A stretch of DNA of 44,234 nt. Source: Escherichia phage vB_EcoS_CEB_EC3a. The stretch lies in the sequence record NC_047812.1; one strand, 5' to 3'. Within the stretch, counting starts at the first letter, position 1. Each line of letters opens with the position of its first letter. Below the pieces are notes generated by a model. It saw nothing but the letters and a program-made list of their open reading frames with translations. It ran no database searches and was not told the origin of the DNA. The position numbers were made by a program, and so were the translations under genes. Below are positions 894-44,234 of the stretch, piece after piece.

Positions 894-1414
894 TGTTTGA
901 CTTTAAAGACAAACTAACAAGCGAGCAGATCATCAATATTGCACGTGCTGATGGTTATCCACTATTGCGAGTTGCAATCAATGCCAATGGATATCGTAGC
1001 TAAAATAAGTTCTGGGGTCAGCCTGATGCGTCAGAAGTATACAAAGATGAGGCGCTTGGGGTTCTGATTAAGCTAATCATGAAAATGGCAAGGAACGGCA
1101 AAGGAGTTGTCGGCATCAGATATCTATATGAAGGTGCTCGCAAGCTGAAACCATTTGCTGGGCGCGATGGAATGATGCTAGTGATCAAGGACAAGCTAAT
1201 TCCAGAGCTCGATAAGATGAATGTTACCTGTCTAATTGGAGATAAGGTTTACGTCAACCCTGCCTTGACGGATTTAAGCTGGCAACCAAACTTCAAAACT
1301 TACGAAGGTGAGCATGCTAGTAGACTACCATACCACTTGCGGTACAGTGAGGGTGAAGTGGAGATGGCTGTCGAGTTCTACCGGAAAGCTAAATCACTCC
1401 TGAACGGTGAATAG
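893..1414 (+). pseudogene. Internally deleted, nonsense-interrupted paralog of the 527-aa ATPase (40729..42312)
   Basis: One reading frame. MFDFKDKLTSEQIINIARADGYPLLRVAINANGYRS then TAA (1001-1003), then ...ARNGKGVVGIRYLYEGARKLKPF...CLIGDKVYVNP. These match the N-terminus (MFDFNEDKLSVEQ...RVAINANGYRQ) and C-terminus (GKNGKGVVGIRSLYEAARKVKPF...CLIGDKVYINP) of the full gene. The Walker core is missing. Confidence 0.7.
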
Positions 1415-1454
1415 CACGGATTGCTAAACAATGGATCGGGTAGTCAGCTATAAT
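1412..1454 (+). promoter_or_regulatory. Dyad-promoter module (TAGCACGGATTGCTA-22 nt-TATAAT)
   Basis: Core 1412-1426, 22-nt spacer, TATAAT 1449-1454, leader TACCACATCGACAAC. Confidence 0.65.
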
Positions 1455-1698: not shown

Positions 1699-1917
1699 AT
1701 GCAAGTATATACGAATAGTAATGGCGTAGAGTATTGTGTTGTTTACGGAGTGGTTCTTCGCACTGTTGGTGGCCTCGGGATCATCAACATTTCAGTGATC
1801 AAGCCTGAATCACTGGTGAAAGGAATCCAGGCCGGAATCTTCAGCTTTCACTCAACGCTGACGGCTAAGCAGTATGTTACCCTCGCCAACGCGGTTAAGT
1901 ACGGTTTTATCAAATAG
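1699..1917 (+). CDS. Hypothetical small early protein (72 aa)
   Basis: ORF track. The stop TAG is the first triplet of the next dyad module. Confidence 0.6.
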   Translation: MQVYTNSNGVEYCVVYGVVLRTVGGLGIINISVIKPESLVKGIQAGIFSFHSTLTAKQYVTLANAVKYGFIK

Positions 1918-1958
1918 CACTTTTTGTTAAAAAGGGGATTCATCCTGACTGGTGTAAT
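1915..1958 (+). promoter_or_regulatory. Dyad-promoter module, variant half-site (TAGCACTTTTTGTTA-23 nt-TGTAAT)
   Basis: Core 1915-1929, TGTAAT 1953-1958, leader CCCCACATCAACCAAAC. Confidence 0.45.
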
Positions 1959-2110: not shown

Positions 2111-2371
2111 ATGAGCAAGTACGACCGCGAGATTATTGGTATTGATGGCACAGTAACAACAGTAGATGTTTATCGCGTTCTTGATGCGTTCAGCGTATCT
2201 GACCCAGCCACTCAGCATGCGGTAAAGAAGATGCTTTGTATGGGGTTGCGTGGACACAAGGATTACATAACCGACCTTAACGACTCAATCGAGTCATTAC
2301 AGAAAGCCAAGGAGCTTTACGGGCAAAAGATGATTCATCAATCGGATAAATCAAATCTGCGTGGTAAATAG
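2111..2371 (+). CDS. Hypothetical early protein, DUF3310-like (86 aa)
   Basis: ORF track with SD AACGAGGA. The segment AVKKMLCMGLRGHKDYITDLNDSIESLQKA resembles the DUF3310 family by eye. Stop TAG lies in the next module. Confidence 0.65.
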   Translation: MSKYDREIIGIDGTVTTVDVYRVLDAFSVSDPATQHAVKKMLCMGLRGHKDYITDLNDSIESLQKAKELYGQKMIHQSDKSNLRGK

Positions 2372-2411
2372 CACGAATTGCTAAACCCTCTCCGCAGGGT
2401 TTTGTTATAGT
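2369..2411 (+). promoter_or_regulatory. Dyad-promoter module (TAGCACGAATTGCTA-22 nt-TGtTATAGT)
   Basis: Core 2369-2383, 22-nt spacer, extended -10 at 2403-2411. Confidence 0.7.
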
Positions 2412-2994: not shown

Positions 2995-3088
2995 TTTTTT
3001 GATAAAATGATGCATCCTTAACGCCTCTTGGCAGCAGAAGGTGCTCGGTGGCACAATCAAGGTTTGCGAGATAATTAAAGAATACAAA

Positions 3089-3131
3089 TAGCACTAATTG
3101 CTAAACCATCATTGGGGTAATTTGTTATAGT
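3089..3131 (+). promoter_or_regulatory. Dyad-promoter module (TAGCACTAATTGCTA-22 nt-TGtTATAGT)
   Basis: Core 3089-3103, TATAGT 3126-3131. Confidence 0.7.
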
Positions 3132-3161: not shown

Positions 3162-3266
3162 ATGAGTGAATTAATTAAAACTATCGCGGACTATCCATTT
3201 GCTTCGCTTTTTCTTGCTCTTGCAATATATGAAATTGTAAAGATTATTGTAAAATGTATTAAATAG
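3162..3266 (+). CDS. Small hydrophobic peptide (34 aa, one predicted TM helix)
   Basis: Hand-translated MSELIKTIADYPFASLFLALAIYEIVKIIVKCIK. SD AACGAGG; stop TAG in the next module. Below the ORF-track size cutoff. Confidence 0.6.
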   Translation: MSELIKTIADYPFASLFLALAIYEIVKIIVKCIK

Positions 3267-3306
3267 CACGAATTTCTAAAACATTATCGGGGTATCTTGC
3301 TATAGT
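3264..3306 (+). promoter_or_regulatory. Dyad-promoter module (TAGCACGAATTTCTA-22 nt-TGcTATAGT)
   Basis: Core 3264-3278, TATAGT 3301-3306. Confidence 0.65.
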
Positions 3307-3693: not shown

Positions 3694-3833
3694 GTTTCAC
3701 TGAATACGTGATCGCATGCGAGCGACTGGTCTTTGATATGAAAACCTTCCACTGGTTCATCATTAAGGATTTAATCAAGCCTTATAAGCAGGGCGTTACG
3801 CCGGAGCGGTTTGTTAAGTCATTTTATAAATAG
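3690..3833 (+). CDS. Hypothetical small protein (47 aa)
   Basis: ATGA overlap with the upstream ORF; stop TAG is in the next module. Confidence 0.5.
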   Translation: MSFTEYVIACERLVFDMKTFHWFIIKDLIKPYKQGVTPERFVKSFYK

Positions 3834-3873
3834 CACGAATTGCTCAACGCAGTCGACACGGATGGCATATAAT
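3831..3873 (+). promoter_or_regulatory. Dyad-promoter module (TAGCACGAATTGCTC-22 nt-TATAAT)
   Basis: Core 3831-3845, TATAAT 3868-3873. Confidence 0.65.
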
Positions 3874-5680: not shown

Positions 5681-7246
5681 ATGTCTTTAGTATGGGAAGA
5701 AATGACCATTCAGGAAAAGATGGCCGTTAAGGCGATATCAGAACACAGCTTCGAGGGTTTCCTTCGTTGCTGGTTCCAGATTACACAAGGCGAGCGATAC
5801 ATCCCTAACTGGCATCACAAGTACTTGTGCAGAATCATTGATGAGATTATCGCAGGAGATCGCAAGGACACCATCATTAACATAGCACCAGGCAGCGGAA
5901 AGACGGAAATTGCCTCAATCCACTTCCCGGCCTATTCGATGGTTAAGCTTAGGAAGGTGCGCAACCTTAACATCTCTTTTGCTGACTCCCTGGTTAAGCG
6001 TAACTCGAAGCGAGTACGTGACCTTATCAAGTCTCAAGAATTTCAGTCACTCTGGCCATGCAAATTTGGCACCTGCAAAGACGATGAGCTTCAGGTTCTT
6101 GATGAGAGTGGCAAGGTTAGATTTGAGTCAATATCAAAGGCGGCTGGAGGCCAGATTACTGGCGCTCGCGGTGGGTACATAACCGAAACATACAGCGGAG
6201 CCGTTCTTTTGGATGACTTTGACAAACCCGCAGATATGTTATCAGCAGTGTACCGCTCGAATAATCACGTAATGCTTAAAAATACGATTCGCTCACGTCG
6301 AGCCAGTTCTGTAAAAGGCAAAGCGACACCAATCATTTCGATACAGCAGCGGCTTCACGTCAATGACTCAACCTATTTCATGATGGAAGGCGGCATGGGT
6401 ATCGAATTCGATTTGATTAAGATACCAGCATTAGTTACTGAGGATTACCTAGACACACTACCTGAATGGATTAAAGAACAGTTTGAAGAGGATGTCCTTA
6501 GTAGTGAATACATAGAGCGCGATGGAGTAAGGTATTACAGCTACTTCCCTAAAAAGGAGTCAGTCAATGACTTGGTTGCGATGTGGGATAGTGACCCTTA
6601 CACCTTCCTTAGTCAGTATCAACAAGAACCAGTAGCTCTAGGTGGCAACCTTATTAACGTAGATTGGTTCCAGCGCCTTAGCGACACGTTCAGACCTCCA
6701 GCTAAGTACGATTATAGATTTATAACTTGCGATACAGCTATGACTACAAAAAGTTATAGTGACTTCTCTGTCCTTCAATTGTGGGGTTATAAAGATGCTA
6801 AGATTTACCTTATTGACCAGCGCAGGGGGAAATGGGAAGCGCCCGAGTTAGAGGCAGAGTTAATCGATTTCGAGAAGAAATCAAGGGCAACCAGTCAATC
6901 GGATGGTATCCTCCGAAAGATTATCATCGAGAAGAAAGCATCTGGAATCGGACTCATTCAATCAGCAAGTCGAGTCATGAGAACGCCAGTGGAACCTTAT
7001 GTTCCTGATAATGACAAGTTAACAAGGGTGATGAGTGCGCTGCCACAGATTAAGGCTGGTAACGTAGTTCTTCCTGAGTCTGCGCCGTGGTTAAGCGGAT
7101 TGCTTACTGAGATTGCGGCATTTACCGCTGACGACAGCCATAATCACGACGACCAAATTGATACCATGACAATGGCTATCAACCTGGTTCTGAACATTGC
7201 GGATGATCCTAAGTCGAGACTGATGCGCATAGCGGGAATGAAATAG
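5681..7246 (+). CDS. terL: Terminase large subunit
   Basis: 521 aa; Walker A PGSGKTE, Walker B-like VLLDDFDK, C-terminal nuclease-like acidic motifs (HDDQIDT). Position upstream of the portal gene. Confidence 0.9.
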   Translation: MSLVWEEMTIQEKMAVKAISEHSFEGFLRCWFQITQGERYIPNWHHKYLCRIIDEIIAGDRKDTIINIAPGSGKTEIASIHFPAYSMVKLRKVRNLNISFADSLVKRNSKRVRDLIKSQEFQSLWPCKFGTCKDDELQVLDESGKVRFESISKAAGGQITGARGGYITETYSGAVLLDDFDKPADMLSAVYRSNNHVMLKNTIRSRRASSVKGKATPIISIQQRLHVNDSTYFMMEGGMGIEFDLIKIPALVTEDYLDTLPEWIKEQFEEDVLSSEYIERDGVRYYSYFPKKESVNDLVAMWDSDPYTFLSQYQQEPVALGGNLINVDWFQRLSDTFRPPAKYDYRFITCDTAMTTKSYSDFSVLQLWGYKDAKIYLIDQRRGKWEAPELEAELIDFEKKSRATSQSDGILRKIIIEKKASGIGLIQSASRVMRTPVEPYVPDNDKLTRVMSALPQIKAGNVVLPESAPWLSGLLTEIAAFTADDSHNHDDQIDTMTMAINLVLNIADDPKSRLMRIAGMK

Positions 7247-7286
7247 CACAAATTGCTAAACACTAAAGCCACGGATGGCGTATAGT
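7244..7286 (+). promoter_or_regulatory. Dyad-promoter module (TAGCACAAATTGCTA-22 nt-TATAGT)
   Basis: Core 7244-7258 contains the terL stop; TATAGT 7281-7286. Confidence 0.65.
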
Positions 7287-14306: not shown

Positions 14307-14312
14307 ATTGCA

Positions 14313-14355
14313 TAGCACTTTTTGCTAAAGCGTTAATCCAATCTTCCTGTATAGT
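14313..14355 (+). promoter_or_regulatory. Dyad-promoter module (TAGCACTTTTTGCTA-22 nt-TATAGT)
   Basis: Core 14313-14327, TATAGT 14350-14355, leader TAACTCATCGAAACGAAATGAGAG. Confidence 0.65.
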
Positions 14356-14991: not shown

Positions 14992-15311
14992 AACGAGCGG
15001 TGTATCTACAGTACCAGTCAGAGCCAACTGATGCCGAACTGGAAGCTATTGGGATGCGCCGCTCTGATTACGAAGACGAAGAGCCTGAAGTTTTAAACTT
15101 CGACGAAAACATGATGAAAGCGTGGGACATTTATTGTTCAATGGCTACGCAGTGGAGAGTCGGAGCTAACGGAGCTACAGGGATGGATTACAACGTGCTA
15201 AATTTCCTCTTTAGAGTGTATAATGTCTCTGAAGAAGAATTGGTGCTCAGCGATTTACGCATCCTTGAAGCTAAGGCTCTTGAGATGATGGATAACCTGA
15301 GAAAAAAATAA
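14677..15311 (+). CDS. Tail assembly chaperone frameshift product (lambda gpGT analog)
   Basis: A -1 slip on A_AAA_AAC (14982-14988) joins the G frame to ORF 15000..15311, which has no ATG of its own. Confidence 0.65.
14982..14988 (+). promoter_or_regulatory. Programmed -1 ribosomal frameshift heptamer A_AAA_AAC
   Basis: X_XXY_YYZ heptamer in the zero frame (gtA AAA AAC taa). The -1 frame stays open to 15311. Confidence 0.65.
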
Positions 15312-18744: not shown

Positions 18745-19500
18745 ATGTTAAGTCCAAAGTTTGAAAATCAGTTGCAAAGTCTTTTCCCAGGCGAGATTGT
18801 GACTCTAATCCAGGTTGACGGAACCTCATTTGGCTCTCTCGTTTATTCGTTCCACAATGAGAACATTTCATACACGCCAGAGGAAATCATGCTAGCCCAG
18901 ATGAATGGGGAGCCGCTACCAGAGAAGACTATTACATTTCGCGGTGAAGAGTATGGCCCTAGACCTTTCGGTATATCTGGCATCAATATGACCTCTGACG
19001 GCAAGGCCAACAAAGTTACACTAACAGTATCAAACGTAGACCAGCGCATTAGCGCCTTGATTCGAACATACAACGGACTTGTTAAAGCTAAGGTTACCAT
19101 CTGGATTACTACGCGAGATAACATCAATGAAGACGGGAGTATTGCTGATGGAGATTATCGCAAATTCGTTTACTTCATTGAGCGACCTAAGCAGGTTGAT
19201 TACAAAACTGCGTCATTTGAGCTTAGTAGCCCGATGGATATGGATGGCATTTATATCCCAGCGAGACTTGTTCAGTCTGTTTGCTACTGGGCTTCTAGGG
19301 GTTGGTATCGTAGCGGGAATGGGTGTGCTTATGCTGGAAATAGATACTTTAATAAGGATGATGAGCCAGTGGCAGATCCTTCATTAGACTTCTGTGCAGG
19401 AACTGTTAACAGTTGCAAGCTTAGATTTGGTGAGAATAATCAGTTAGATTTTGGCGGCTGCGCTGCCGCAAGCCTTCAGGCTAAAGCCAACCAGAGTTAA
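18745..19500 (+). CDS. Minor tail protein, lambda gpL-like
   Basis: ATG 18745 follows GGAGAAAATC. The C-terminal Cys cluster (CYW...GNGC...C..TVNSC) resembles the gpL Fe-S ligands. Confidence 0.8.
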   Translation: MLSPKFENQLQSLFPGEIVTLIQVDGTSFGSLVYSFHNENISYTPEEIMLAQMNGEPLPEKTITFRGEEYGPRPFGISGINMTSDGKANKVTLTVSNVDQRISALIRTYNGLVKAKVTIWITTRDNINEDGSIADGDYRKFVYFIERPKQVDYKTASFELSSPMDMDGIYIPARLVQSVCYWASRGWYRSGNGCAYAGNRYFNKDDEPVADPSLDFCAGTVNSCKLRFGENNQLDFGGCAAASLQAKANQS

Positions 19501-25563: not shown

Positions 25564-25606
25564 ATAGTATCGAATCCTTGCGATCAGTGTTTAGCAATTA
25601 GTGCTA
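25564..25606 (-). promoter_or_regulatory. Dyad-promoter module (minus strand) driving lipoprotein and RBP
   Basis: Core 25592-25606, 22-nt spacer, TACTAT (plus-strand ATAGTA 25564-25569), leader TACCACATCGAAACGAAAC. Confidence 0.65.
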
Positions 25607-26251
25607 TTTCTTTTCGAGTAACATCTTGATGTCAATGCCGAGATTATTTTCAATCAATCCAGTCAGTGCATCCGTCTTTTCTTTAAGGGCAAAACACTGA
25701 GCTTCATACTTAAATCTTTCCTCCATCTCGTCAGAGCGACTAACCCAGCACTGGCGAGCCTCGCAAGCCAGCATGTCGAGTTTTTCATCGGTATTCTTAT
25801 CCATGAGTAAGATCTCATTTATTCTTTGCTCTGCAACAATGCGCTGACTAAGGTGTGCATTTTGCGCATTAGCCACACCAAGCATCATTCGCACTTCTTT
25901 TAACTCATCAATGCTTACCATCTGGCTGATTACTTCTTCTTGTTTTTTAACTAATTGCTCAAGCTCATGAAGTCGACGGATAACTTTGTGTCGAAGCACG
26001 ACGCTGTAGCCAGTGATTAGCGTTTCGGTGAGTTCCTTGTTGAGTAAAATCTCAGATGTATAGCCTCGATTGTCTGTAAGTAGTTGATAATCATAATGAC
26101 CCAAATCTGGGGCATCGTTATAATGTAACAATTCATTGATCATTTCCTTTGTGTCGCGAACGACGTGATCATGACGTTTCCCGGTTAACTCTGCGATTTC
26201 CTTTGTGCTCATCATGGTTTTTGGTTGTTCTTTGTACAATTCAATGTTCAT
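25604..26251 (-). CDS. Rha-family phage regulatory protein
   Basis: N-terminus MSTKEIAELTGKRHDHVVRDTKEMI matches the Rha signature. ATG 26251 is preferred because SD AAGAGAG lies 6 nt upstream. Stop TAG is in the next module. Confidence 0.7.
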   Translation of the reverse strand: MNIELYKEQPKTMMSTKEIAELTGKRHDHVVRDTKEMINELLHYNDAPDLGHYDYQLLTDNRGYTSEILLNKELTETLITGYSVVLRHKVIRRLHELEQLVKKQEEVISQMVSIDELKEVRMMLGVANAQNAHLSQRIVAEQRINEILLMDKNTDEKLDMLACEARQCWVSRSDEMEERFKYEAQCFALKEKTDALTGLIENNLGIDIKMLLEKK

Positions 26252-26322: not shown

Positions 26323-26365
26323 AATATAACTAAAGATAGTCAGTTGTCTTTAGCAATTAGTGCTA
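26323..26365 (-). promoter_or_regulatory. Dyad-promoter module (minus strand) driving rha
   Basis: Core 26351-26365, 22-nt spacer, TATATT (plus-strand AATATA 26323-26328). Confidence 0.6.
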
Positions 26366-26379
26366 TTTATCGCCAATTT

Positions 26380-28017: not shown

Positions 28018-28018
28018 A

Positions 28019-28061
28019 TAGCACGAATCGCTAAAGACAAAATTAAAAGGTGGGGTATGAT
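28019..28061 (+). promoter_or_regulatory. Dyad-promoter module (TAGCACGAATCGCTA-22 nt-TATGAT)
   Basis: Core 28019-28033, TATGAT 28056-28061. Confidence 0.55.
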
Positions 28062-29222: not shown

Positions 29223-29246
29223 AGGCCCCTTTCGGGGCCTTTTTTA
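29223..29246. terminator. Bidirectional intrinsic terminator
   Basis: AGGCCCC-tttc-GGGGCCT followed by T6, between convergent ssb and fibre genes. Confidence 0.8.
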
Positions 29247-32054
29247 TGAAGCTGTATTTACCTGAAGATATGCACCATTAGTTGCACCAAACCATGCGTA
29301 AGCAGATCCGTAAGTTGTTGGGTTATCATTTAAGATGAAGTCACCCGCTCTAATTACGCACTTTTCTCCATATTTATCAGTTGGCCTTGCACTAAAACCA
29401 TAATCAACATATCTAAAACCAACCTTCGTTACGTTCTTGTTAAGAGGAAAAATCCTTAAGAAGCTAGAAGCCCTAAAGTCATTATTCCTGAAAATTCCTC
29501 CTGTAAAGTTATCCATATCAAACATTGTGGTTAAACTTGAAGCAACAGTATTCATGAACTTGTTGCCTTCATATGTCGGAGCTACTACTTCATAGCCAAC
29601 TCTTAGCTGAACAAATCCTCCATCAAGAATATTGTCCTTAATTGTTGGGTACTGACCGCCGATTGATAACGCCCCAAAGCCAGGTGTAAATTTGCAACTA
29701 TTATTACTAAATATAGTACCAACCCAACCCTGATTTGTAATATATGGCGCTTTCGTGTCTGTCATGGTGTTTCCGGTGATAATCAATCCATTCTTAGCCT
29801 GGACTCCCTCCTGGTAGCCCTGAATCGCTACTCCACCACCAATCATAATGTTATCAGCGATAAGAATATTACTTAGACCTTCGTTAACACCCCAATCACT
29901 TTCTGAATCATTTGTTATCAGTAAGTAGTGAGAAGAAGCCCTGCCAGTAGCGTCTGTAGTTATGATGCTTGTATTCCCTTTGCATATAACATTGTTTGCC
30001 GCAAAAACCTCAACAAATATACCAGAGCCTTCGTAGTAGTTATCAGTAACCGTTATGTTATTGCCAGCAGGCGTTATACGTGACTGGATAGATATTGGAT
30101 AATAGAACTTGTTGGCGTGAGCATAAGACCTTTTGCTTTTTTCGGATATTGCATAATCCTCCGCGAAAGTGTGCCATGCCCTTCCTGACTGTTTTGTTGT
30201 GTTTCCGATAAACTCTGAGTAGTCACAGTTTCTTGTGAGTAAGCAGTAGTTAGCGTTGTATCTGAAGTTTGAATCTCTAAGAGATACGAATGCATTAGAC
30301 AAACCATTAAGAGCATCGGCATTAACAAAGGCCCTCGAGGCATTAACCTCCATACGCTCAATCAAAACTGATGCGCATCCTTCAACCATAAATCCAAACC
30401 AGTCTTCTCTTGGTTTATGCGTTGTATCTAATGGTTGGATTGAGTAATCTGAAAAGTCACTATTCCAGTTGAGGCCGCTAGCTTTAAGTGTGCAATTCTT
30501 TGCGCCGAAAACAACCCTCTCAGGTGATGAACTTCCAGATATATCGATCTCAACATCATTATTGGCAAAAATATCAACATTAAGGCCATTAATGAAGAAT
30601 GCCGTCTTCCTTAATACGTTGTACTTATCATTGTACTGAATATCAGTGGAGAATGAGACTTTCAGTCTTCCAGCGCTAATTCTTACCTTCCTGTTTGTAT
30701 TGTGACCAAGGTTTATACATGCCATAACCGAGGCGTTTGATTCATTAACTCCAGACACATCATGACCAGCCCATTCGGTATGGATATCATCAACACCTCC
30801 CGTAAACCTAACCCAGCAACCATTTTCACCTGGTGATGTCTCACCCGCTCCGCTAAGGAAGTCTGAAAGCGTGGAATATGTACCATCAAATGGAACCGTT
30901 GGGCTAAAAACAGTAATCCCGTTATGTTCGCTCTTACTTACTAATGGACTCCAGTAGAACAGACCGCCACCAGAGTTTGATCCAGAAATGTAAGACCTTA
31001 CATTTGCTAAATTTTTATTCTCATTTGTTTGTTTGATTAGTTCGTAAATTGAATCAACTGAAGATAGTCCTAAATTACTCCTGGCAAGGCTTTTATCCGC
31101 AACATCAGAGAAATTCAATGATTTTTGAAAAGTCTCATTTTTTGAGTAAACATCAAGTAAACCTCTTACTCGCTGGGCGTTAGCGCCTCCAGCTTCATTT
31201 CCGCCAGGCAAGTAGATTGACTCTCTAACATAGTAATTCCTAACACCACCGGAAGTATTGTAACTGATGTGATAACGTCTAAAGTTGCCATCGATACCGG
31301 TGTAGGTTGACACTTGAATATTTCTTGATCCAGTCCCAGTTGCTCCGCCCTCTACAGATATAACAAGCGTAGCATTGCTTGGTACTTTTAATGCTTCTGG
31401 TGCATTTGTGCAAGCAGAGAAAGCAACCCTATAATGACCGCCAACAACAAAATTAAAAGTTTGGAAATCAAGTTCACTTAAAATATTGCTACCATTACCG
31501 ATACCCCAACCAGAAAGTGTAACTAGTGTTCCAGCATCACCAGCACTATTAATTGCCTCAATAGTAGCATCTCTCGCTGATGTGGTTGTATCTCTTGCAC
31601 TAACGGCAGTAGCTGCGCTCTCTGCGGCAGCAATCTGGCTAGCTAAAGCATCCGCTGCTCCTTGCACTGACTGGCTTGCCAATTGCTCAAAGCGAGGCCA
31701 ATCAAAAGAATCCTGACCAATGAAATCAATCAGGCTCTGAATGCTAGTTTCCCTACTCTGATAATAACGAAGTGTCTCCGCTACATTTTGAGCTAAACCC
31801 TGAACACTAATACCATCATGTGCAAGGATTGCATAACCAGTGCCAGCGGGAACGGTTTCACCATTAGGGTTGTATACAGCCATTGATGTGTCGCTGGTGA
31901 TTTCAGAGATAGTGTAAATCTGTACTGGCTCCGTTTTAAACACTAAAGTAGCACCAACGCGAATAAGTGTTAGTGGCATGGTCCATTGAGTGCCAACTCC
32001 AGTAACCTGACCGTTCGCTGCTAAACTGGCAGTGCCAGTATCATAAATTGCCAT
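29244..32054 (-). CDS. Lateral tail fibre/tailspike with beta-helix (depolymerase-like) domain
   Basis: Start MAIYDTGTASLAANGQVTGVGTQW (ATG 32054, SD GGAG). Conserved fibre-anchor N-terminus, then Asn/Gly-rich repeats typical of right-handed beta-helix spikes. Confidence 0.75.
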   Translation of the reverse strand: MAIYDTGTASLAANGQVTGVGTQWTMPLTLIRVGATLVFKTEPVQIYTISEITSDTSMAVYNPNGETVPAGTGYAILAHDGISVQGLAQNVAETLRYYQSRETSIQSLIDFIGQDSFDWPRFEQLASQSVQGAADALASQIAAAESAATAVSARDTTTSARDATIEAINSAGDAGTLVTLSGWGIGNGSNILSELDFQTFNFVVGGHYRVAFSACTNAPEALKVPSNATLVISVEGGATGTGSRNIQVSTYTGIDGNFRRYHISYNTSGGVRNYYVRESIYLPGGNEAGGANAQRVRGLLDVYSKNETFQKSLNFSDVADKSLARSNLGLSSVDSIYELIKQTNENKNLANVRSYISGSNSGGGLFYWSPLVSKSEHNGITVFSPTVPFDGTYSTLSDFLSGAGETSPGENGCWVRFTGGVDDIHTEWAGHDVSGVNESNASVMACINLGHNTNRKVRISAGRLKVSFSTDIQYNDKYNVLRKTAFFINGLNVDIFANNDVEIDISGSSSPERVVFGAKNCTLKASGLNWNSDFSDYSIQPLDTTHKPREDWFGFMVEGCASVLIERMEVNASRAFVNADALNGLSNAFVSLRDSNFRYNANYCLLTRNCDYSEFIGNTTKQSGRAWHTFAEDYAISEKSKRSYAHANKFYYPISIQSRITPAGNNITVTDNYYEGSGIFVEVFAANNVICKGNTSIITTDATGRASSHYLLITNDSESDWGVNEGLSNILIADNIMIGGGVAIQGYQEGVQAKNGLIITGNTMTDTKAPYITNQGWVGTIFSNNSCKFTPGFGALSIGGQYPTIKDNILDGGFVQLRVGYEVVAPTYEGNKFMNTVASSLTTMFDMDNFTGGIFRNNDFRASSFLRIFPLNKNVTKVGFRYVDYGFSARPTDKYGEKCVIRAGDFILNDNPTTYGSAYAWFGATNGAYLQVNTAS

Positions 32055-32078
32055 TGTGTAAAGTCTCCATTTGTAAAG

Positions 32079-32108
32079 TAGCACTAATTGCTAAAGTGGA
32101 TTGTATCA
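32079..32108 (-). promoter_or_regulatory. Fibre-gene promoter (TGaTACAAT) with the TAGCA dyad placed at about +1 to +15
   Basis: On the minus strand: TGATACAAT (32100-32108), 6 nt, then TAGCAATTAGTGCTA (32079-32093). This is operator-over-start geometry, unlike the other copies. Confidence 0.5.
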
Positions 32109-32120
32109 TCTTTCATGTAT

Positions 32121-32143
32121 AAAAAAACCTCCCGAAGGAGGTT
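32121..32143 (-). terminator. Intrinsic terminator after primase
   Basis: Minus strand: AACCTCC-ttcg-GGAGGTT followed by T7. Confidence 0.8.
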
Positions 32144-33065
32144 AGTCTAGTAATTCGCTTGCTTTGTATATTCGCTTTCTTATGCCTGACTTGAAAAAAT
32201 TATCATCATTTGGCATTACCACATCAAGATTGCGATCGTCAGCAACAGCGAGTAAATCAAAATCGTGGCGAGTACAAGCGACGCGTAACTTGTAGTTTCT
32301 AAGCGCATAAGCAACCATTTCCATGTTGTAGCTGGAGTGGCAAACAAGCACACAGCGGTTGCCAGTAGCAATGTGAACGCGATAGCCGTCAATGAGATTA
32401 TCGACCAGATAAGCGTACTCATCATCTTTAAAGGCGCCAATAATAGAAACAGACTGGCGAGTATAATCTTTTGCAGCATAGCTAACATCTCCATCTTCAT
32501 TGATAAACATTACATTGCACATATCATCTGATATGCCGTCACTATAAGCCATAAAGCACGGTACTGCGTGTATTAGTTCGCCTGATTTAGTCCTGCCAAC
32601 ATCAAAACCAAATTCGCTATAGATACCCTCGTATATACTGAGCGGTGTTGATTCTACTCTTTCCGTCCTTTCCATTATCTCAAGGCATCTTTCGTGGTCA
32701 ATCTGCGCGCCCATTTTATAAAGCTTAGTTCTTGATGCTTGCTTGTTTGCCTTAACTATAACCTCAATTGGTGTTAAGTTCAGCCAGTCACCAAGCAAAT
32801 TCACTGAATCGGCGAAGGACGATCCAGTGCACTTCATGACCCATCCTATACCTGAGTCACTTCCGCATTTCGAACAAACTGCCGCGCCATTTCCTTTTTC
32901 ACTGCCTATTTCGTCGGTAAATCTGAATCTGTCAGTGCCAAGGCAGTATGGGCATGGTCCGTGCTTCTTACTTAGGTGTCTATCATTCCAACCAAGTTCC
33001 TTTGCATAAAATAATTTCCACAATCCGGCCATCTTAGGTATAACTTCATTCTTATCGTAATTCAT
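32142..33065 (-). CDS. DNA primase (Zn-ribbon + Toprim-like)
   Basis: CPYCLGTDRFRF...CSKCG zinc ribbon of the P4/T7-type primase N-terminus. The acidic Toprim-like segment is C-terminal. Confidence 0.7.
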   Translation of the reverse strand: MNYDKNEVIPKMAGLWKLFYAKELGWNDRHLSKKHGPCPYCLGTDRFRFTDEIGSEKGNGAAVCSKCGSDSGIGWVMKCTGSSFADSVNLLGDWLNLTPIEVIVKANKQASRTKLYKMGAQIDHERCLEIMERTERVESTPLSIYEGIYSEFGFDVGRTKSGELIHAVPCFMAYSDGISDDMCNVMFINEDGDVSYAAKDYTRQSVSIIGAFKDDEYAYLVDNLIDGYRVHIATGNRCVLVCHSSYNMEMVAYALRNYKLRVACTRHDFDLLAVADDRNLDVVMPNDDNFFKSGIRKRIYKASELLD

Positions 33066-33541
33066 TTGCTTAACCCGTGATTTTCGTGAAAGTTGTATTT
33101 TCTCTCTGCTTCAATTCTTACTTTATACGCCTGCTCTGGAGTATCGAAGTTCCCAAGGTGTAGCTGCTTACCGTCAACCTTGATGTGAGCCTTAAATTTT
33201 CCGTGATTTAGCTTTGCCACTCCACAATAACCAGTTGTTGATAAAACGCTAAGCTTGCAATTTCTTGAGTTACCTTGATTTGTTGTTACTCTTAGGTTTT
33301 CTATTCTGTTATCTAATTTGTTATGGTTTATATGATCAATGTAGTCGCCATTTTTAAGTTCTCCATTAAACATCTCCCACACAACTCTATGTACATAAGT
33401 CCTAAAGCCATTAACAGACACTTTGTAATAGCCAGATGTAGATAGTGAGTTGCACTCATCGCCAACCTTAACACGTCTTGCAGTGCTAATCTTCCAATGC
33501 AATTTGCCATCTACATAGTAAAAATAATCATGCCAGTTCAT
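33062..33541 (-). CDS. HNH homing endonuclease with AP2 DNA-binding domain
   Basis: YIDHINHNKLDNRIENLRVTTNQGNSRN (HNH) and GKFKAHIKVDGKQLHLGNFDTPEQA (AP2). AT-rich. ATGA overlap with the primase start. Confidence 0.85.
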   Translation of the reverse strand: MNWHDYFYYVDGKLHWKISTARRVKVGDECNSLSTSGYYKVSVNGFRTYVHRVVWEMFNGELKNGDYIDHINHNKLDNRIENLRVTTNQGNSRNCKLSVLSTTGYCGVAKLNHGKFKAHIKVDGKQLHLGNFDTPEQAYKVRIEAERKYNFHENHGLSK

Positions 33542-33593: not shown

Positions 33594-34067
33594 TTACTCT
33601 TTAGCTTTTCGTGCGGCTTCGTTAGCTGCCTTGATCTTTCGCCATGAGCGACACTCTGGTTTAGTTGCTAGCTCAGCCTCAGTAACAACACGCAGCATAT
33701 GACGCTTCTTGCAACGTAGAGTTAGCGGTTTCCCGTTACCGTCGAATTGCAGATCTGGTCGGCAGAATGTAGCGCGAAAACCTTCTCCATTTCGCTTATA
33801 GTAGTTGTGCGACAGCTGGGCGCCGCGCGCAGAAATCATCCCACGCTTAAACCATTCTTCTACAGCCTGAGGTGTCACCTTTAACTGCTTTGCGATATTT
33901 GCCTTTGTGCCGAAGAAATCAAGAACAATCTCCAACCGTGCGCGCAACCCAGCCCTTACCTCGTCTTTTAAAACGTAGTAGCCTGAAGGTCGTTTCCGTT
34001 GTTTTTTGTCTTCAGTACGAATGGTTCCGTTGTTCCCGTTAATTGTTCGCTTGTCTACTGCATTCAT
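33594..34067 (-). CDS. Putative HTH DNA-binding protein (157 aa)
   Basis: HTH-like segment NIAKQLKVTPQAVEEWFKRGMIS; basic termini. Confidence 0.55.
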   Translation of the reverse strand: MNAVDKRTINGNNGTIRTEDKKQRKRPSGYYVLKDEVRAGLRARLEIVLDFFGTKANIAKQLKVTPQAVEEWFKRGMISARGAQLSHNYYKRNGEGFRATFCRPDLQFDGNGKPLTLRCKKRHMLRVVTEAELATKPECRSWRKIKAANEAARKAKE

Positions 34068-34080
34068 TTCATTACCTCAA

Positions 34081-34122
34081 TAGCATTTTTTGTTAAAAGT
34101 CATTCCGATTTAATGTTATTAT
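34081..34122 (+). promoter_or_regulatory. Dyad-promoter module, variant (TAGCATTTTTTGTTA-21 nt-TATTAT) for helicase
   Basis: Core 34081-34095, TATTAT 34117-34122. Confidence 0.5.
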
Positions 34123-36164: not shown

Positions 36165-36584
36165 ATGCAAATTACAGACAAAGAAGATTACATTGAGTTT
36201 TACCCAGGCCCGGTTAAGTCGTGTCCGAAAGAGGATGACGAACAAATCTTTTGCTCTGATTGGGTTAAGTATAACTACCCGGAGATGGTATTTTTCCACT
36301 GCGTAAATGAGGGGAAGAAAACCATTGGACAGGCAAGAAAGGACCAGGCTAAAGGGCTCCTTAAAGGCGTGTCAGACTGCATGTTTCTTATTCCCGAGTC
36401 TCTGAGAGGCAAATACCCTTTCGGAGCTATAGAGCTGAAGAGGGCTGGCAAAACTCAGGCTAGCCCAGTCAGTGACGAACAGAAGTCTTTCCTTAAAAGC
36501 GTAAGAGAATCAGGCGGTTTCGCTGGTGTTGCCTACGGGCGCGAGGGTTTTCTTGCGGCATTCAAAGAAATGATTTCAAAATAG
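36165..36584 (+). CDS. VRR-NUC domain nuclease
   Basis: GVSDCMFLIP...GAIELKRAGK (D...E-x-K) and size typical of VRR-NUC. Stop TAG is in the next module. Confidence 0.75.
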   Translation: MQITDKEDYIEFYPGPVKSCPKEDDEQIFCSDWVKYNYPEMVFFHCVNEGKKTIGQARKDQAKGLLKGVSDCMFLIPESLRGKYPFGAIELKRAGKTQASPVSDEQKSFLKSVRESGGFAGVAYGREGFLAAFKEMISK

Positions 36585-36624
36585 CACGAATTGCTAAAGA
36601 CGATTTTAAAAGATGCGATATAGT
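36582..36624 (+). promoter_or_regulatory. Dyad-promoter module (TAGCACGAATTGCTA-22 nt-TATAGT)
   Basis: Core 36582-36596, TATAGT 36619-36624, leader TACCACATCGAAACGAAAC. Confidence 0.7.
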
Positions 36625-36662
36625 TACCACATCGAAACGAAACACATAGAGAGAGAAACAAA

Positions 36663-36857
36663 ATGGCTACTATCTACACTGAAAAACTCTACAAGTCACG
36701 CAAAACTGGTTATGAATATGAATTAGCAATCACCGCTGAGGGTTATATTCTTGATGATGGCGAAGGTTACGCATTCGAAGTTAGCCCGACTTACAAAGAT
36801 GACCTGGAAACTGTTAAAAACGCATTCGGCGAAAAATTTGATGAGGTATCGGAATAA
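36663..36857 (+). CDS. Hypothetical protein (64 aa)
   Basis: ORF track; SD GAGAGAGA. Confidence 0.7.
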   Translation: MATIYTEKLYKSRKTGYEYELAITAEGYILDDGEGYAFEVSPTYKDDLETVKNAFGEKFDEVSE

Positions 36858-37450: not shown

Positions 37451-37702
37451 ATGTTGGGTTTAGATTTTCAGCCAGGGCATTACGATTTAGTATATGGGCA
37501 AAGTGGAGCTAAGTTTAGGGCGATACCTATTGCTGACTGGTTACCTCCTGATTATGTGGATGTTAATGCAAAAACTAAAGACGGGAAGTGGGTTCAGATT
37601 TACTACTCCCCAGCATGCGGAAACCTTTGCATGACTGACCTTGATCAGAAATTAGCAATTAGTGCGGAAGTTATCGACTACTGGTTGAAAGAAGTTGAAT
37701 GA
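37451..37702 (+). CDS. Hypothetical protein (83 aa)
   Basis: ORF track; SD AAGGA. Confidence 0.65.
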   Translation: MLGLDFQPGHYDLVYGQSGAKFRAIPIADWLPPDYVDVNAKTKDGKWVQIYYSPACGNLCMTDLDQKLAISAEVIDYWLKEVE

Positions 37703-37785: not shown

Positions 37786-38916
37786 ATGGCAACTGCAAAA
37801 ATTACCAACGAAGAACTGCGCGAAGAACTGGCAAATGGCATGACCAACAAGGCAATCGCAGAGAAGTACGGAATGAACATTCGCAACGTTGAATTGCGTC
37901 GTAGTAAATTGGCTAAACAAGGTGAGGGGCATGGCCGTGATGTTAGTAACCTAATCCCTCAAGGTTACGCCGTTAAGGGCGTTTCTAGCTTAATTGGTGC
38001 TGATGGTGAGATCAAGCAACAGTGGGTAAAGTCTGACATTGACAAGGAGAAGCAAGAAGAAATGATGCTTCAGGCAATTCAGGCGATGACCGATGAGTTA
38101 CCACGCGAAAAAGCGAAGCCACTCAGTACGTCATCATTTGAGGACACTCTGAGCCTTTACCCTGTATTCGACCTTCACATTGGCGCAATGGCTCACCATG
38201 CTGAATGTGGCGAGAACTACAGCACTGAAATCGCCGAGCGAGTCCTTAATAGTTATTTTGATTACGCCGTTGCAAAGGCACCAAACTCCAAGAAAGCTGT
38301 ATTGCTGATTGGTGGTGACTTCCTTCACTCTGACGGAATGGAGGCGGTAACCCCAACCAGTCGTCATATTCTTGATCAGGATAGTCGATACCACAAATTG
38401 GTTTACGTAGCAGTGAGAGCGACGCGAAGAGCAATTAGTCGGATGCTTGATAAGCACGCTGAGGTTGAGGTTCAGATTATTCCTGGAAACCACGATCTTT
38501 CAGGAATGATTTGGTTGCGTGCGGCAATGGCCGCTTTCTATATGGATGAGCCTCGAGTTAATGTTGATGCGTCACCTGCTGCGCTTCACGTAACGCAGTT
38601 TGGAAAGACGCTACTTGGTTACTGTCATGGACATGAACTCAAAAAGCCTGATACCAGACTATCAACACTGGCTCGTGACCATCGTAAGGCTTTTGGTGAG
38701 TCTGAGTATGTTTACACTCATAGTGGCCATTACCACCATCAAACGATTACAGAGGGTAACTTAGGTATCGATGAGTCTCATGGTCAGCTTGGTTGTAAGG
38801 ATGCGTACAGTGCCAACGGTGGTTATCGCTCTTATCGCCAGGCGTCTGTAATCATCTACAGCCCTAAATTCGGAGAGATTGGTCGATTCACTTGCCGTCC
38901 CGAAATGTTTAGTTAA
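37786..38916 (+). CDS. N-terminal HTH fused to a calcineurin/Mre11-type metallophosphoesterase
   Basis: HTH-like MTNKAIAEKYGMNIRNVELRRSKL. Phosphoesterase motifs DLHIG, GGDFLHSDG, GNHD, GHxH-like CHGHE and SGHYHH. Confidence 0.7.
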   Translation: MATAKITNEELREELANGMTNKAIAEKYGMNIRNVELRRSKLAKQGEGHGRDVSNLIPQGYAVKGVSSLIGADGEIKQQWVKSDIDKEKQEEMMLQAIQAMTDELPREKAKPLSTSSFEDTLSLYPVFDLHIGAMAHHAECGENYSTEIAERVLNSYFDYAVAKAPNSKKAVLLIGGDFLHSDGMEAVTPTSRHILDQDSRYHKLVYVAVRATRRAISRMLDKHAEVEVQIIPGNHDLSGMIWLRAAMAAFYMDEPRVNVDASPAALHVTQFGKTLLGYCHGHELKKPDTRLSTLARDHRKAFGESEYVYTHSGHYHHQTITEGNLGIDESHGQLGCKDAYSANGGYRSYRQASVIIYSPKFGEIGRFTCRPEMFS

Positions 38917-38959
38917 TAGCACTTTTTGCCTAAAGAATGCCGTAGAAATGCGGCATAAT
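38917..38959 (+). promoter_or_regulatory. Dyad-promoter module, variant (TAGCACTTTTTGCCTA-21 nt-CATAAT)
   Basis: Core 38917-38932 (one extra base), CATAAT 38954-38959, leader TACCACATCGAAAC. Confidence 0.5.
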
Positions 38960-42342: not shown

Positions 42343-42385
42343 ATTATATCAACGACCGCTTATAATTCATTATCAATTTGTGCTA
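42343..42385 (-). promoter_or_regulatory. Dyad-promoter module, variant half-site (TAGCACAAATTGATA-22 nt-TATAAT)
   Basis: Core 42371-42385, TATAAT (plus-strand ATTATA 42343-42348). Confidence 0.6.
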
Positions 42386-42386
42386 T

Positions 42387-43175: not shown

Positions 43176-43218
43176 ACTATATAACATCCGTGGCGGTGAG
43201 TTTTAGCAATTCGTGCTA
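43176..43218 (-). promoter_or_regulatory. Dyad-promoter module (minus strand)
   Basis: Core 43204-43218, 22-nt spacer, TATAGT (plus-strand ACTATA 43176-43181), leader TACTTCATCGAAACGAGAGG. Confidence 0.7.
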
Positions 43219-43364
43219 TTTCGTGCCTTCTCAATCGCCTTCAGCACAATCTCGTGAGACTCAAGCAAGTCCTCGTTGAACCAGTCTCCGCAAGGCCAGC
43301 CCTTTCCGCTATAGGCACTTATGACCTCAAGATCGAAATAATTTATCTCAGATGGTAGAAGCAT
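43203..43364 (-). CDS. Hypothetical small protein (53 aa)
   Basis: Hand-translated MLLPSEINYFDLEVISAYSGKGWPCGDWFNEDLL... Stop is the TAA of the module GCTAAA. TGATG coupling upstream. Confidence 0.5.
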   Translation of the reverse strand: MLLPSEINYFDLEVISAYSGKGWPCGDWFNEDLLESHEIVLKAIEKARNSTNC

Positions 43365-44004: not shown

Positions 44005-44048
44005 ACTATATCCTCCATGACCCACAATGTCTTTAGCAAAAAGTGCTA
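44005..44048 (-). promoter_or_regulatory. Dyad-promoter module (minus strand) for the leftward early operon
   Basis: Core 44034-44048 (TAGCACTTTTTGCTA on minus), 23-nt spacer, TATAGT (plus-strand ACTATA 44005-44010). Confidence 0.65.
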
Positions 44049-44234
44049 TTCGTTAGATTTATTGATTGTTGCATATATTGCAATGATTATCATGACTATT
44101 GCACATATGGCAATATTGCTTCAGATGCAATGATGTTTTTGATTGTTGCGAAAAGTGAAATGAAGTTGGGAGTGAGTGAATGAAAGATGGATGGACTACC
44201 ATACAAGTTGATTTTGATTCCCGCTGAGCCATTT
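44049..44234. repeat. Noncoding cluster of short AT-rich palindromes and TTGATTGTTGC direct repeats
   Basis: ATTGCAAT, ATGATtATCAT and GCAATATTGC palindromes, TTGATTGTTGC twice, and five TTGCA/TGCAA elements. No credible ORF. Confidence 0.6.

Follow-up and report, generated by a model that had tools for sequence, protein, structure and literature searches.

Layout of the fibre-gene leader

The tail fibre gene of Escherichia phage vB_EcoS_CEB_EC3a is preceded by an inverted copy of a short repeat that elsewhere in the genome stands upstream of gene cassettes. The stretch analyzed (NC_047812.1; 44,234 nucleotides, nt), referred to below as the window, belongs by sequence comparison to a T1-like siphophage (Drexlerviridae, Rtp-type), with 94.6% identity to vB_EcoS_UALMA_PCEc3 and PsgS01F and with ACG-M12 and DTL also related. 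Its gene order is that of the related phage records, and Escherichia coli is the host of these relatives. The fibre gene occupies 29244..32054 on the minus strand (936 amino acids; ATG at 32054-32052) and matches phrog_24092, tail fiber protein, with E = 0; the same annotation is found in the relatives, in which the fibre genes are mosaic 3' of a conserved N-terminus.

Read along the minus strand, the primase stop codon TAA (32144-32142) is followed by an intrinsic terminator at 32126..32143 (AACCTCCTTCGGGAGGTT plus TTTTTAT), recovered both by a terminator scan and by direct reading, in which a 7-bp (base pair) G+C-rich stem, AACCTCC/GGAGGTT, is closed by a TTCG loop and followed by T7. The extended -10 element TGaTACAAT (TGATACAAT; 32100..32108) of the predicted fibre promoter comes next, then 6 nt (32099-32094), the 15-mer TAGCAATTAGTGCTA (32093-32079), a Shine-Dalgarno GGAG (32065..32068) and the ATG. 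Direct reading thus confirmed the -10 element, the 6-nt gap and the perfect 15-mer that a first-pass annotation of the locus had described. The promoter has no -35 element, and the T-tract of the terminator takes up that position.

The comparison of relatives drew on 80 Drexlerviridae loci that have the conserved fibre N-terminus and upstream sequence, among them T1 (L177), Rtp (L139) and TLS (L163), and the 78 full-length loci were used for counts. An equivalent terminator lies 5' of the fibre gene in the relatives, and between it and the fibre start is found a -10 of the form TGnTAnnnT (66 of 78 loci) or a plain C/TATAAT (11 of 78). Positions G24, T26, and A27 of the extended -10 are invariant in a MAFFT alignment of 12 diverged leaders, and the Shine-Dalgarno block is conserved in it as well. 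The first-pass annotation had named transcription of the fibre gene solely by read-through from the primase operon as a finding that would overturn its proposal; since nearly all 78 relatives have both a conserved extended -10 and a strong terminator ahead of the fibre gene, read-through is unlikely to be the only source of fibre transcription.

A repeat that fits the marbox consensus

A search of the window with the TAGCAATTAGTGCTA-type 15-mer gave 24 matches at ≤3 mismatches against 1.67 expected, and removal of weak and intragenic matches left 17-18 gene-upstream copies. In the direction of the gene, all promoter copies follow the pattern aaA-TAGCAC-NNW-TTGCTA-AAc, in which C6, T10, and flanks that are A-rich on one strand are kept throughout. 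With one left and four right flanking bases included, the repeat reads ATAGCAC-NNW-TTGCTAAAC-N and fits both the 20-bp consensus AYNGCACNNWNNRYYAAAYN for the site of MarA, SoxS, and Rob (PMC2064960) and the marbox consensus GCAHWWWWTGYYAAA derived from chromatin immunoprecipitation (PMC6900184). Perfect matches to the marbox 15-mer number 9 in the window, where 0.0 are expected from Markov shuffles, and the 20-mer matches 15 times at ≤1 mismatch against 0.77 expected. Variation between copies falls on positions 8 and 9, which are N in the consensus, and position 10 is only ever A or T, in line with the consensus W; the GAA, TTT, AAA, and TAA subtypes accordingly differ at the N-N-W positions.

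The element had been described as a dyad, a description that does not hold. Only the 5-bp arms are symmetric in this phage, as opposed to what a palindromic operator would show, while no copy has symmetry at positions 6 and 10 or in the flanks; TTGTTA variants, which are common in T1 and TLS, break the dyad symmetry and still satisfy the RYY of the marbox. Since GCA...TGC symmetry is inherent in the marbox consensus, the apparent dyad is a by-product of an optimal marbox and is not evidence for a dimer. The box of the mar operon (ATGCCACGTTTTGCTAAATC, strain MG1655) is identical to the phage box ATAGCACTTTTTGCTAAAGC at 16 of 20 positions, and the core GCA...TGCTAAA is found in both. The mar box differs in its setting, however, being reversed and upstream of a good -35 element (class I), a geometry found in no phage copy.

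The same motif has been reported from Drexlerviridae without this assignment. A 2024 re-annotation of TLS described a 21-nt direct repeat (DR; DR1-18 in TLS), aaATAGCACnnnTTGnTAAAA, in 21 co-directional copies about 76 nt before start codons, with GAA, TTT, and AAA subtypes and with occurrences also in T1, Rtp, and Rogue1. Its authors left the function open between a stoperator, an enhancer-binding site, and an UP element, and drew no connection to the marbox. The phage motif is this 21-nt repeat, from which the fibre copy departs by its inversion and by lying 24 nt from the start codon.

Escherichia coli encodes MarA, SoxS, and Rob. No homologue was detected in the window by tblastn and hmmsearch with MarA, SoxS, and the N-terminus of Rob as queries (best E 0.27-0.67), so that the factor would be the host's. 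The repeat is therefore read as an asymmetric near-consensus marbox which is probably a functional MarA/SoxS/Rob site.

Forward boxes at the cassette promoters

Each of the 17-18 promoter copies is co-directional with the gene downstream. On the plus strand, boxes are found at 1411..1430 (ATAGCACGGATTGCTAAACA; 18 nt to TATAAT, start codon at 1485), 1914..1933 (ATAGCACTTTTTGTTAAAAA; 19 nt, TGTAAT), 2368..2387 (ATAGCACGAATTGCTAAACC; 18 nt, TGtTATAGT, start 2441), 3088..3107 (ATAGCACTAATTGCTAAACC; 18 nt, TGtTATAGT, start 3162), 3263..3282 (ATAGCACGAATTTCTAAAAC; 18 nt, TGcTATAGT, start 3337), and 3830..3849 (ATAGCACGAATTGCTCAACG; 18 nt, TATAAT, start 3904). Two more, at 7243..7262 (ATAGCACAAATTGCTAAACA; 18 nt, TATAGT, start 7316) and 14312..14331 (ATAGCACTTTTTGCTAAAGC; 18 nt, TATAGT, start 14389), precede a small gene inserted between the terminase and portal genes and a small gene after the major tail protein gene, respectively. 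The remaining plus-strand copies lie at 28018..28037 (ATAGCACGAATCGCTAAAGA; 18 nt, TATGAT, start 28091, an Erf-like gene), 34080..34099 (ATAGCATTTTTTGTTAAAAG; 17 nt, TGtTATTAT, helicase gene), 36581..36600 (ATAGCACGAATTGCTAAAGA; 18 nt, TATAGT, start 36663), and, in degenerate form, 38916..38935 (ATAGCACTTTTTGCCTAAAG; 18 nt, CATAAT, start 39001). On the minus strand are those at 25588..25607 (ATAGCACTAATTGCTAAACA; 18 nt, TACTAT, start 25524), 26347..26366 (ATAGCACTAATTGCTAAAGA; 18 nt, TATATT), 42367..42386 (ATAGCACAAATTGATAATGA, degenerate; 18 nt, TGaTATAAT, start 42312, a helicase gene), 43200..43219 (ATAGCACGAATTGCTAAAAC; 18 nt, TATAGT, start 43146), and 44030..44049 (ATAGCACTTTTTGCTAAAGA; 19 nt, TATAGT, start 43978).

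The spacing at these sites is close to constant. A TATAGT/TATAAT-like -10 is separated from the 15-mer by 22 nt and from the 20-mer box by 17-19 nt; the latter gap is 18 nt at 15 of the 18 copies and 17 or 19 nt at the others. Start codons come at a uniform 29-33 nt beyond the -10. The -10 hexamers agree with 4-6 of the 6 consensus positions, and the -35 position is occupied by AAACAA-like sequence that has no TTG. The earlier statement of a centre near -42 for the other 17 copies is borne out by these distances, as is the contrast in geometry that it drew; the centre lies at about -41 at the cassette promoters and at about +6 at the predicted fibre promoter.

This arrangement is that of a class II promoter of the MarA family, in which a forward box overlaps the -35 region, clustered near -41, with a canonical -10 and no recognizable -35; class I boxes, by comparison, are reversed and lie further upstream. 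The micF promoter is a structurally solved class II example, with its site at about -41, and in E. coli it reads ACAGCACTGAATGTCAAAAC, exactly 18 nt, then TAGAAT. The phage promoters resemble it in the forward 20-bp box at the -35 position, the same 18-nt gap (ATAGCACGAATTGCTAAACC-18-TATAGT), the centre at about -41, the canonical -10, and the missing -35. They differ from it in that a virulent phage bears about 17 near-identical near-consensus copies in 44 kb whereas host boxes are degenerate, and the likeness covers the cassette copies only, for which we infer dependence on a regulator. T1 has a class II-like architecture at a dozen promoters. The class II rule of Martin et al. 1999 reportedly allows 18-19 bp; for the comparison made here the gap was measured directly at micF.

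Two other promoter types were considered and rejected. If TTGCTA were a sigma-70 -35 element, a spacer of 16-18 nt would be needed, and it ends 22 nt before the -10 in every copy. The sigma-54 consensus is TGGCAC-N5-TTGCW, with GG and GC elements 10 nt apart and a start about 12 nt downstream; in the phage repeat the spacer is N3 and not N5, GG is replaced by AG, and a sigma-70 -10 is conserved at a fixed distance.

Several further features accompany the forward boxes. A unit of about 75 bp comprising the box, the -10, and the 5' untranslated region is repeated whole, and the cassettes share a conserved transcribed leader after the -10, TATAGT-TAcCACATCgAAACGA-(gagg) (e.g., 1449-1485, 2406-2441, and 36619-36663). 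Positions 2-4 of the box form the TAG stop codon of the upstream gene at 1412-1414, 1915-1917, 2369-2371, 7244-7246, 36582-36584, and 25606-25604, and this embedded stop may account for the A that the phage has at the consensus N position 3. Short G+C-rich hairpins, such as ccctctccgcaggg and gccacggatggc, lie between box and -10 at 2388-2405, 7263-7280, and 43182-43199. A degenerate forward box, GCCGCACGAAAAGCTAAAGA (33617 to 33598), stands 18 nt before a TGnCATAAT -10 situated in the loop of a terminator hairpin (33587-33564), just 5' of an inserted HNH endonuclease gene (33062-33541); the arrangement looks like a promoter-in-stem-loop cassette that travels with a mobile gene. A partial inverted box with two mismatches, AAATTAGCAATTAGTGCGGA, is found at 37649-37668 inside the open reading frame (ORF) 37451-37702, roughly 120 nt short of the exonuclease gene. 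With no -10 upstream, it is probably a relic.

The inverted copy in the fibre leader

The fibre-leader box, GTAGCACTAATTGCTAAAGT, lies at 32078..32097 and contains the 15-mer. It reads on the plus strand and is thus inverted with respect to the fibre gene, a point that the first-pass annotation missed, whereas the promoter copies are all forward. With its surroundings the plus strand reads aagTAGCACTAATTGCTAAAGt, which corresponds to the TLS direct repeat, and 32081-32095 is a perfect match to the consensus from chromatin immunoprecipitation. The box begins 2 nt after the extended -10 and ends 24 nt before the ATG, 5' of the ribosome-binding site. For a start 7 nt downstream of the -10, it would cover about -4 to +16, and in other lineages up to +24; all of these spans would fall within the footprint of the open complex. 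Being inverted and 3' of the fibre -10, it has neither the class II geometry nor the placement of the TLS repeat, co-directional and about 76 nt before a start codon, which the other copies share.

The relatives have a leader box at 42 of 78 loci, inverted in 42 and forward in 0. Its distance after the -10 is 6 nt at 13 loci (Rtp-type and others), 7 nt at 15 (T1-type), 12 nt at 13, and 15 nt at 1. When 12 diverged fibre leaders were aligned with MAFFT, unguided, no block was invariant except the extended -10 (TGnTAnAAT) and the inverted box (TTAnCAA...TGCTA), amid flanks that cannot be aligned. Each position of the box carries 1.7 bits of information and each flank position 0.56-0.58, a contrast that is inflated by the use of the box pattern as the anchor.

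No usable -10 lies on the plus strand 17-20 nt past the fibre box in the window or the relatives, the hexamers at 18-19 nt being TGTATA/GTATAA, which the relatives do not keep; this copy is thus an orphan box. An antisense class II promoter driven from this box was accordingly rejected; the TATAAA at 20 nt belongs to the A-tract of the terminator and is not conserved in relatives.

Inverted boxes occur at other structural genes in related phages. The major head protein gene of both T1 and TLS has an inverted box upstream (T1 15067-15086; TLS DR7 15044-15024), followed by a hairpin with CATAAT in its loop, and the T1 tail chaperone leader has one at 18831-18850, after a terminator and TGTAAAAT. 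The window has no such T1-type inverted boxes at its major head and tail chaperone genes.

The divergent helicase-regulator region

A 157-amino-acid Cro-like helix-turn-helix "transcriptional regulator" is encoded at 33594..34067 on the minus strand (phrog_2856, 1e-84; PF14549 P22_Cro at 27 bits, below cutoff). It is 52% identical to T1 ST23, from which its predicted recognition helix differs. Its promoter, TTGTCT-17-TACAAT (minus strand, 34149 to 34121), is a canonical sigma-70 promoter with no forward box. The helicase promoter on the plus strand, composed of the box at 34080-34099, 17 nt, and TGtTATTAT (34114-34122), diverges from it; the two -10 hexamers overlap on opposite strands, and the helicase box lies inverted in the regulator leader. 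The region looks like a built-in either/or switch in which occupancy of the box should favour one promoter. T1 has the same divergent layout, with its box at 36444-36463.

A distinct motif was noted near the right end of the window, where three dyads of the TTGCA-N5-TGCAA type (TTGCATATATTGCAA, TTGCACATATGGCAA, and TTGCTTCAGATGCAA) lie within 62 bp (44069-44130). They could represent an operator for the phage regulator or an end-related site.

Proposed regulation and precedents

The marbox is an asymmetric 20-bp site, and at the phage copies it would be bound by a monomer of the host AraC-family proteins MarA, SoxS, or Rob, or by RamA in other enterics. At the approximately 17 cassette and early promoters the box would stand in for the -35 element, and the bound regulator would contact RNA polymerase and activate in class II fashion. 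The fibre promoter, predicted to be the sole promoter of the gene, would otherwise be constitutive by virtue of its extended -10. The fibre box faces the wrong way and lies on the wrong side, which rules out class II activation, and a class I role is rejected because the transcript would then start inside the fibre ORF. A regulator on this box would sit inside the polymerase footprint and would most likely reduce fibre transcription through steric occlusion or blocked promoter escape; steric hindrance fits better than a phased contact, given that the distance to the -10 shifts by half helical turns between lineages. Relief late in infection could come, speculatively, from replicating phage DNA, which would multiply the boxes and titrate the host factor. 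Rob is the constitutively abundant member of the family.

Precedents exist for both effects. The outcome of MarA-family binding hinges on the position and orientation of the box, with repression when core promoter elements are overlapped. A box in the spacer of the pbpG promoter lets MarA, SoxS, and Rob repress that gene directly, and the screen of Grainger took as candidate repression sites those boxes, of whichever orientation, that have their centre from -35 to +25. The fibre box is like the pbpG-type sites in that it would lie inside the polymerase footprint; it is unlike them, with their boxes over the -35 or the spacer, in being 3' of the -10 over a predicted start, where repression would be expected by analogy. 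Further examples named in the literature are purA, hdeA, and rob. Among phage regulators, lambda cI (OR/PRM) activates from about -42 and phi29 p4 from further upstream, and both repress when the site overlaps a promoter. These are phage-encoded proteins that act as dimers or multimers on symmetric or multiple sites, whereas the likely factor here is a host monomer on an asymmetric site.

The first-pass annotation had proposed that one factor has opposite, position-dependent effects at the two kinds of promoter. This is plausible in light of the marbox match and of the ability of MarA, SoxS, and Rob to activate class II promoters and to repress pbpG, while the two effects themselves are, in the phage, what we infer from the layout. 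That host Rob, MarA, or SoxS turns on the cassette promoters while repressing the fibre promoter sterically is on present sequence evidence a possibility that we advance tentatively, slightly short of thinking it probable.

Alternative explanations

A number of observations weigh against this proposal. Geometry alone cannot name the factor, because the marbox consensus is degenerate and dimeric activators, too, work from a centre at about -41. T1-like phages grow well, even though cells not under stress contain little MarA and SoxS and their Rob is mostly inactive. A literature search, with the original T1 and Rtp genome papers outside it, returned no paper that ties MarA, SoxS, Rob, or marboxes to T1-like phages. 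The fibre transcript start, placed some 7 nt past TACAAT, is a prediction based only on the -10 element. About half of the relatives, TLS included, have no leader box and retain the terminator and the extended -10, and the fibre site would thus be dispensable or optional; TLS-type phages and several other lineages that do not have it nonetheless carry forward boxes elsewhere. The uniform inverted orientation may reflect common descent and not selection. The forward boxes at 7243 and 14312 lie within the late region, so that the clean split of the simple early/late switch proposed in the first-pass annotation is not borne out, though both precede small inserted genes and not core structural genes.

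The regulator gene is retained across the family (phrog_2856; T1 ST23) and its ordinary sigma-70 promoter is independent of the box, which likewise speaks for a different binder. A phage protein, chiefly the Cro-like regulator, would be made first from its own promoter, activate from about -41, repress the fibre promoter, and regulate itself through the inverted box in its leader. The 5-bp symmetric arms of the Rtp-type box would suit such a protein, and a centre at about -41/-42 is the class II position for dimeric activators too, such as lambda cI and CRP. The element is nevertheless asymmetric, with flanks A-rich on one strand on both sides and with C7 and T11 unsymmetric, and the TTGTTA variants of T1 and TLS depart from the dyad in a manner that fits the RYY of the marbox. 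Its core is invariant across Rtp-type phages, T1, and TLS, whereas the regulator is only 52% identical with a changed recognition helix, and the agreement at all 14 specified marbox positions would be a coincidence. We consider a phage-encoded binder unlikely. Somewhat less likely still is a fibre-leader box with no regulatory effect, either a relic of a cassette promoter or a recombination linker for swaps of fibre modules, beside a constitutive fibre promoter. The mosaic fibre genes beyond the conserved N-terminus and the relatives without a box accord with it, and a single event could have founded all inverted copies. However, the box has stayed invariant amid flanks diverged beyond recognition and has outlasted indels that shifted its distance to the -10 from 6 to 15 nt, and a near-consensus marbox at the start would presumably be occupied whenever the factor is present.

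The remaining explanations are weaker. Activation of the fibre promoter from downstream, or action of the inverted box at another promoter, has parallels in Rns, an AraC-family regulator that uses sites downstream of the start for activation, and in Salmonella yadG, where a reverse-orientation box at the class II position activates. Helical phasing is not kept with -10 spacings of 6, 7, 12, and 15 nt among lineages, though, and the plus strand offers no -10 at class II distance in the window or the relatives, and from a class I position transcription would begin within the fibre ORF; we regard this explanation as very improbable. The suggestion of the TLS re-annotation authors that the element, with no specific protein involved, acts as an UP-like element or an L5-type "stoperator" draws on the A-rich flanks, but the core contains G and C and is position-specific (GCAC...TGCT), unlike an UP element, and a stoperator would have no need of the constant 18 nt between element and -10; the phage is, moreover, virulent and has no immunity repressor, and there is little to make this suggestion credible. 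An effect at the RNA level, in which the dyad forms a 5'-terminal hairpin that stabilizes the fibre mRNA, can appeal to a 5-bp stem of -3 kcal/mol in the isolated 15-mer. In the context of the leader the fold is unremarkable (z = -0.5; 53 of 200 shuffles fold at least equally well), T1-type and L148-type leaders do not form the hairpin, compensatory changes are absent, and TAACA...TGCTA variants disrupt the stem, which leaves the hairpin as the least credible explanation considered here.

A doubtful host label

The record "Pseudomonas phage PsgS01F" (44,679 bp) has the same size and match statistics as Escherichia phage vB_EcoS_UALMA_PCEc3. Its Pseudomonas host label is odd for a T1-like coliphage and looks doubtful.

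Implications

The repeat itself has been described before, and regulatory logic of this kind has precedents. Its identification as a probable marbox, the idea of a phage-borne class II regulon, and an inverted box over the fibre start that is kept in T1 and Rtp types appear to be new. Reading the repeat as a marbox gives a concrete candidate factor for the Drexlerviridae repeat, whose function was left open in the literature searched. An extension of this reading, which goes well beyond the fibre locus and which we hold to be rather unlikely as a whole, is that the T1-like transcription programme is built largely on the host MarA/SoxS/Rob regulon. About 17 near-perfect class II marboxes would then drive early and accessory genes, and inverted marboxes would serve as off-switches of structural genes (fibre; major head and tail chaperone in T1); development would be tuned by antibiotic, oxidative, or bile stress, and the early-late shift would follow as replicating phage DNA titrated a fixed pool of the host activator.

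If host Rob, MarA, or SoxS does act at these sites, a common coliphage family, among whose members are notorious laboratory contaminants and several candidates for phage therapy, would read the multiple-antibiotic-resistance and oxidative-stress state of its host. Mutations in mar or sox, which are frequent in resistant clinical isolates, as well as salicylate, bile salts, and redox drugs, would then change phage gene expression, with relevance to phage-antibiotic combinations. The fibre box would be a compact case in which activation or repression is set purely by the position and orientation of a site for one host factor.

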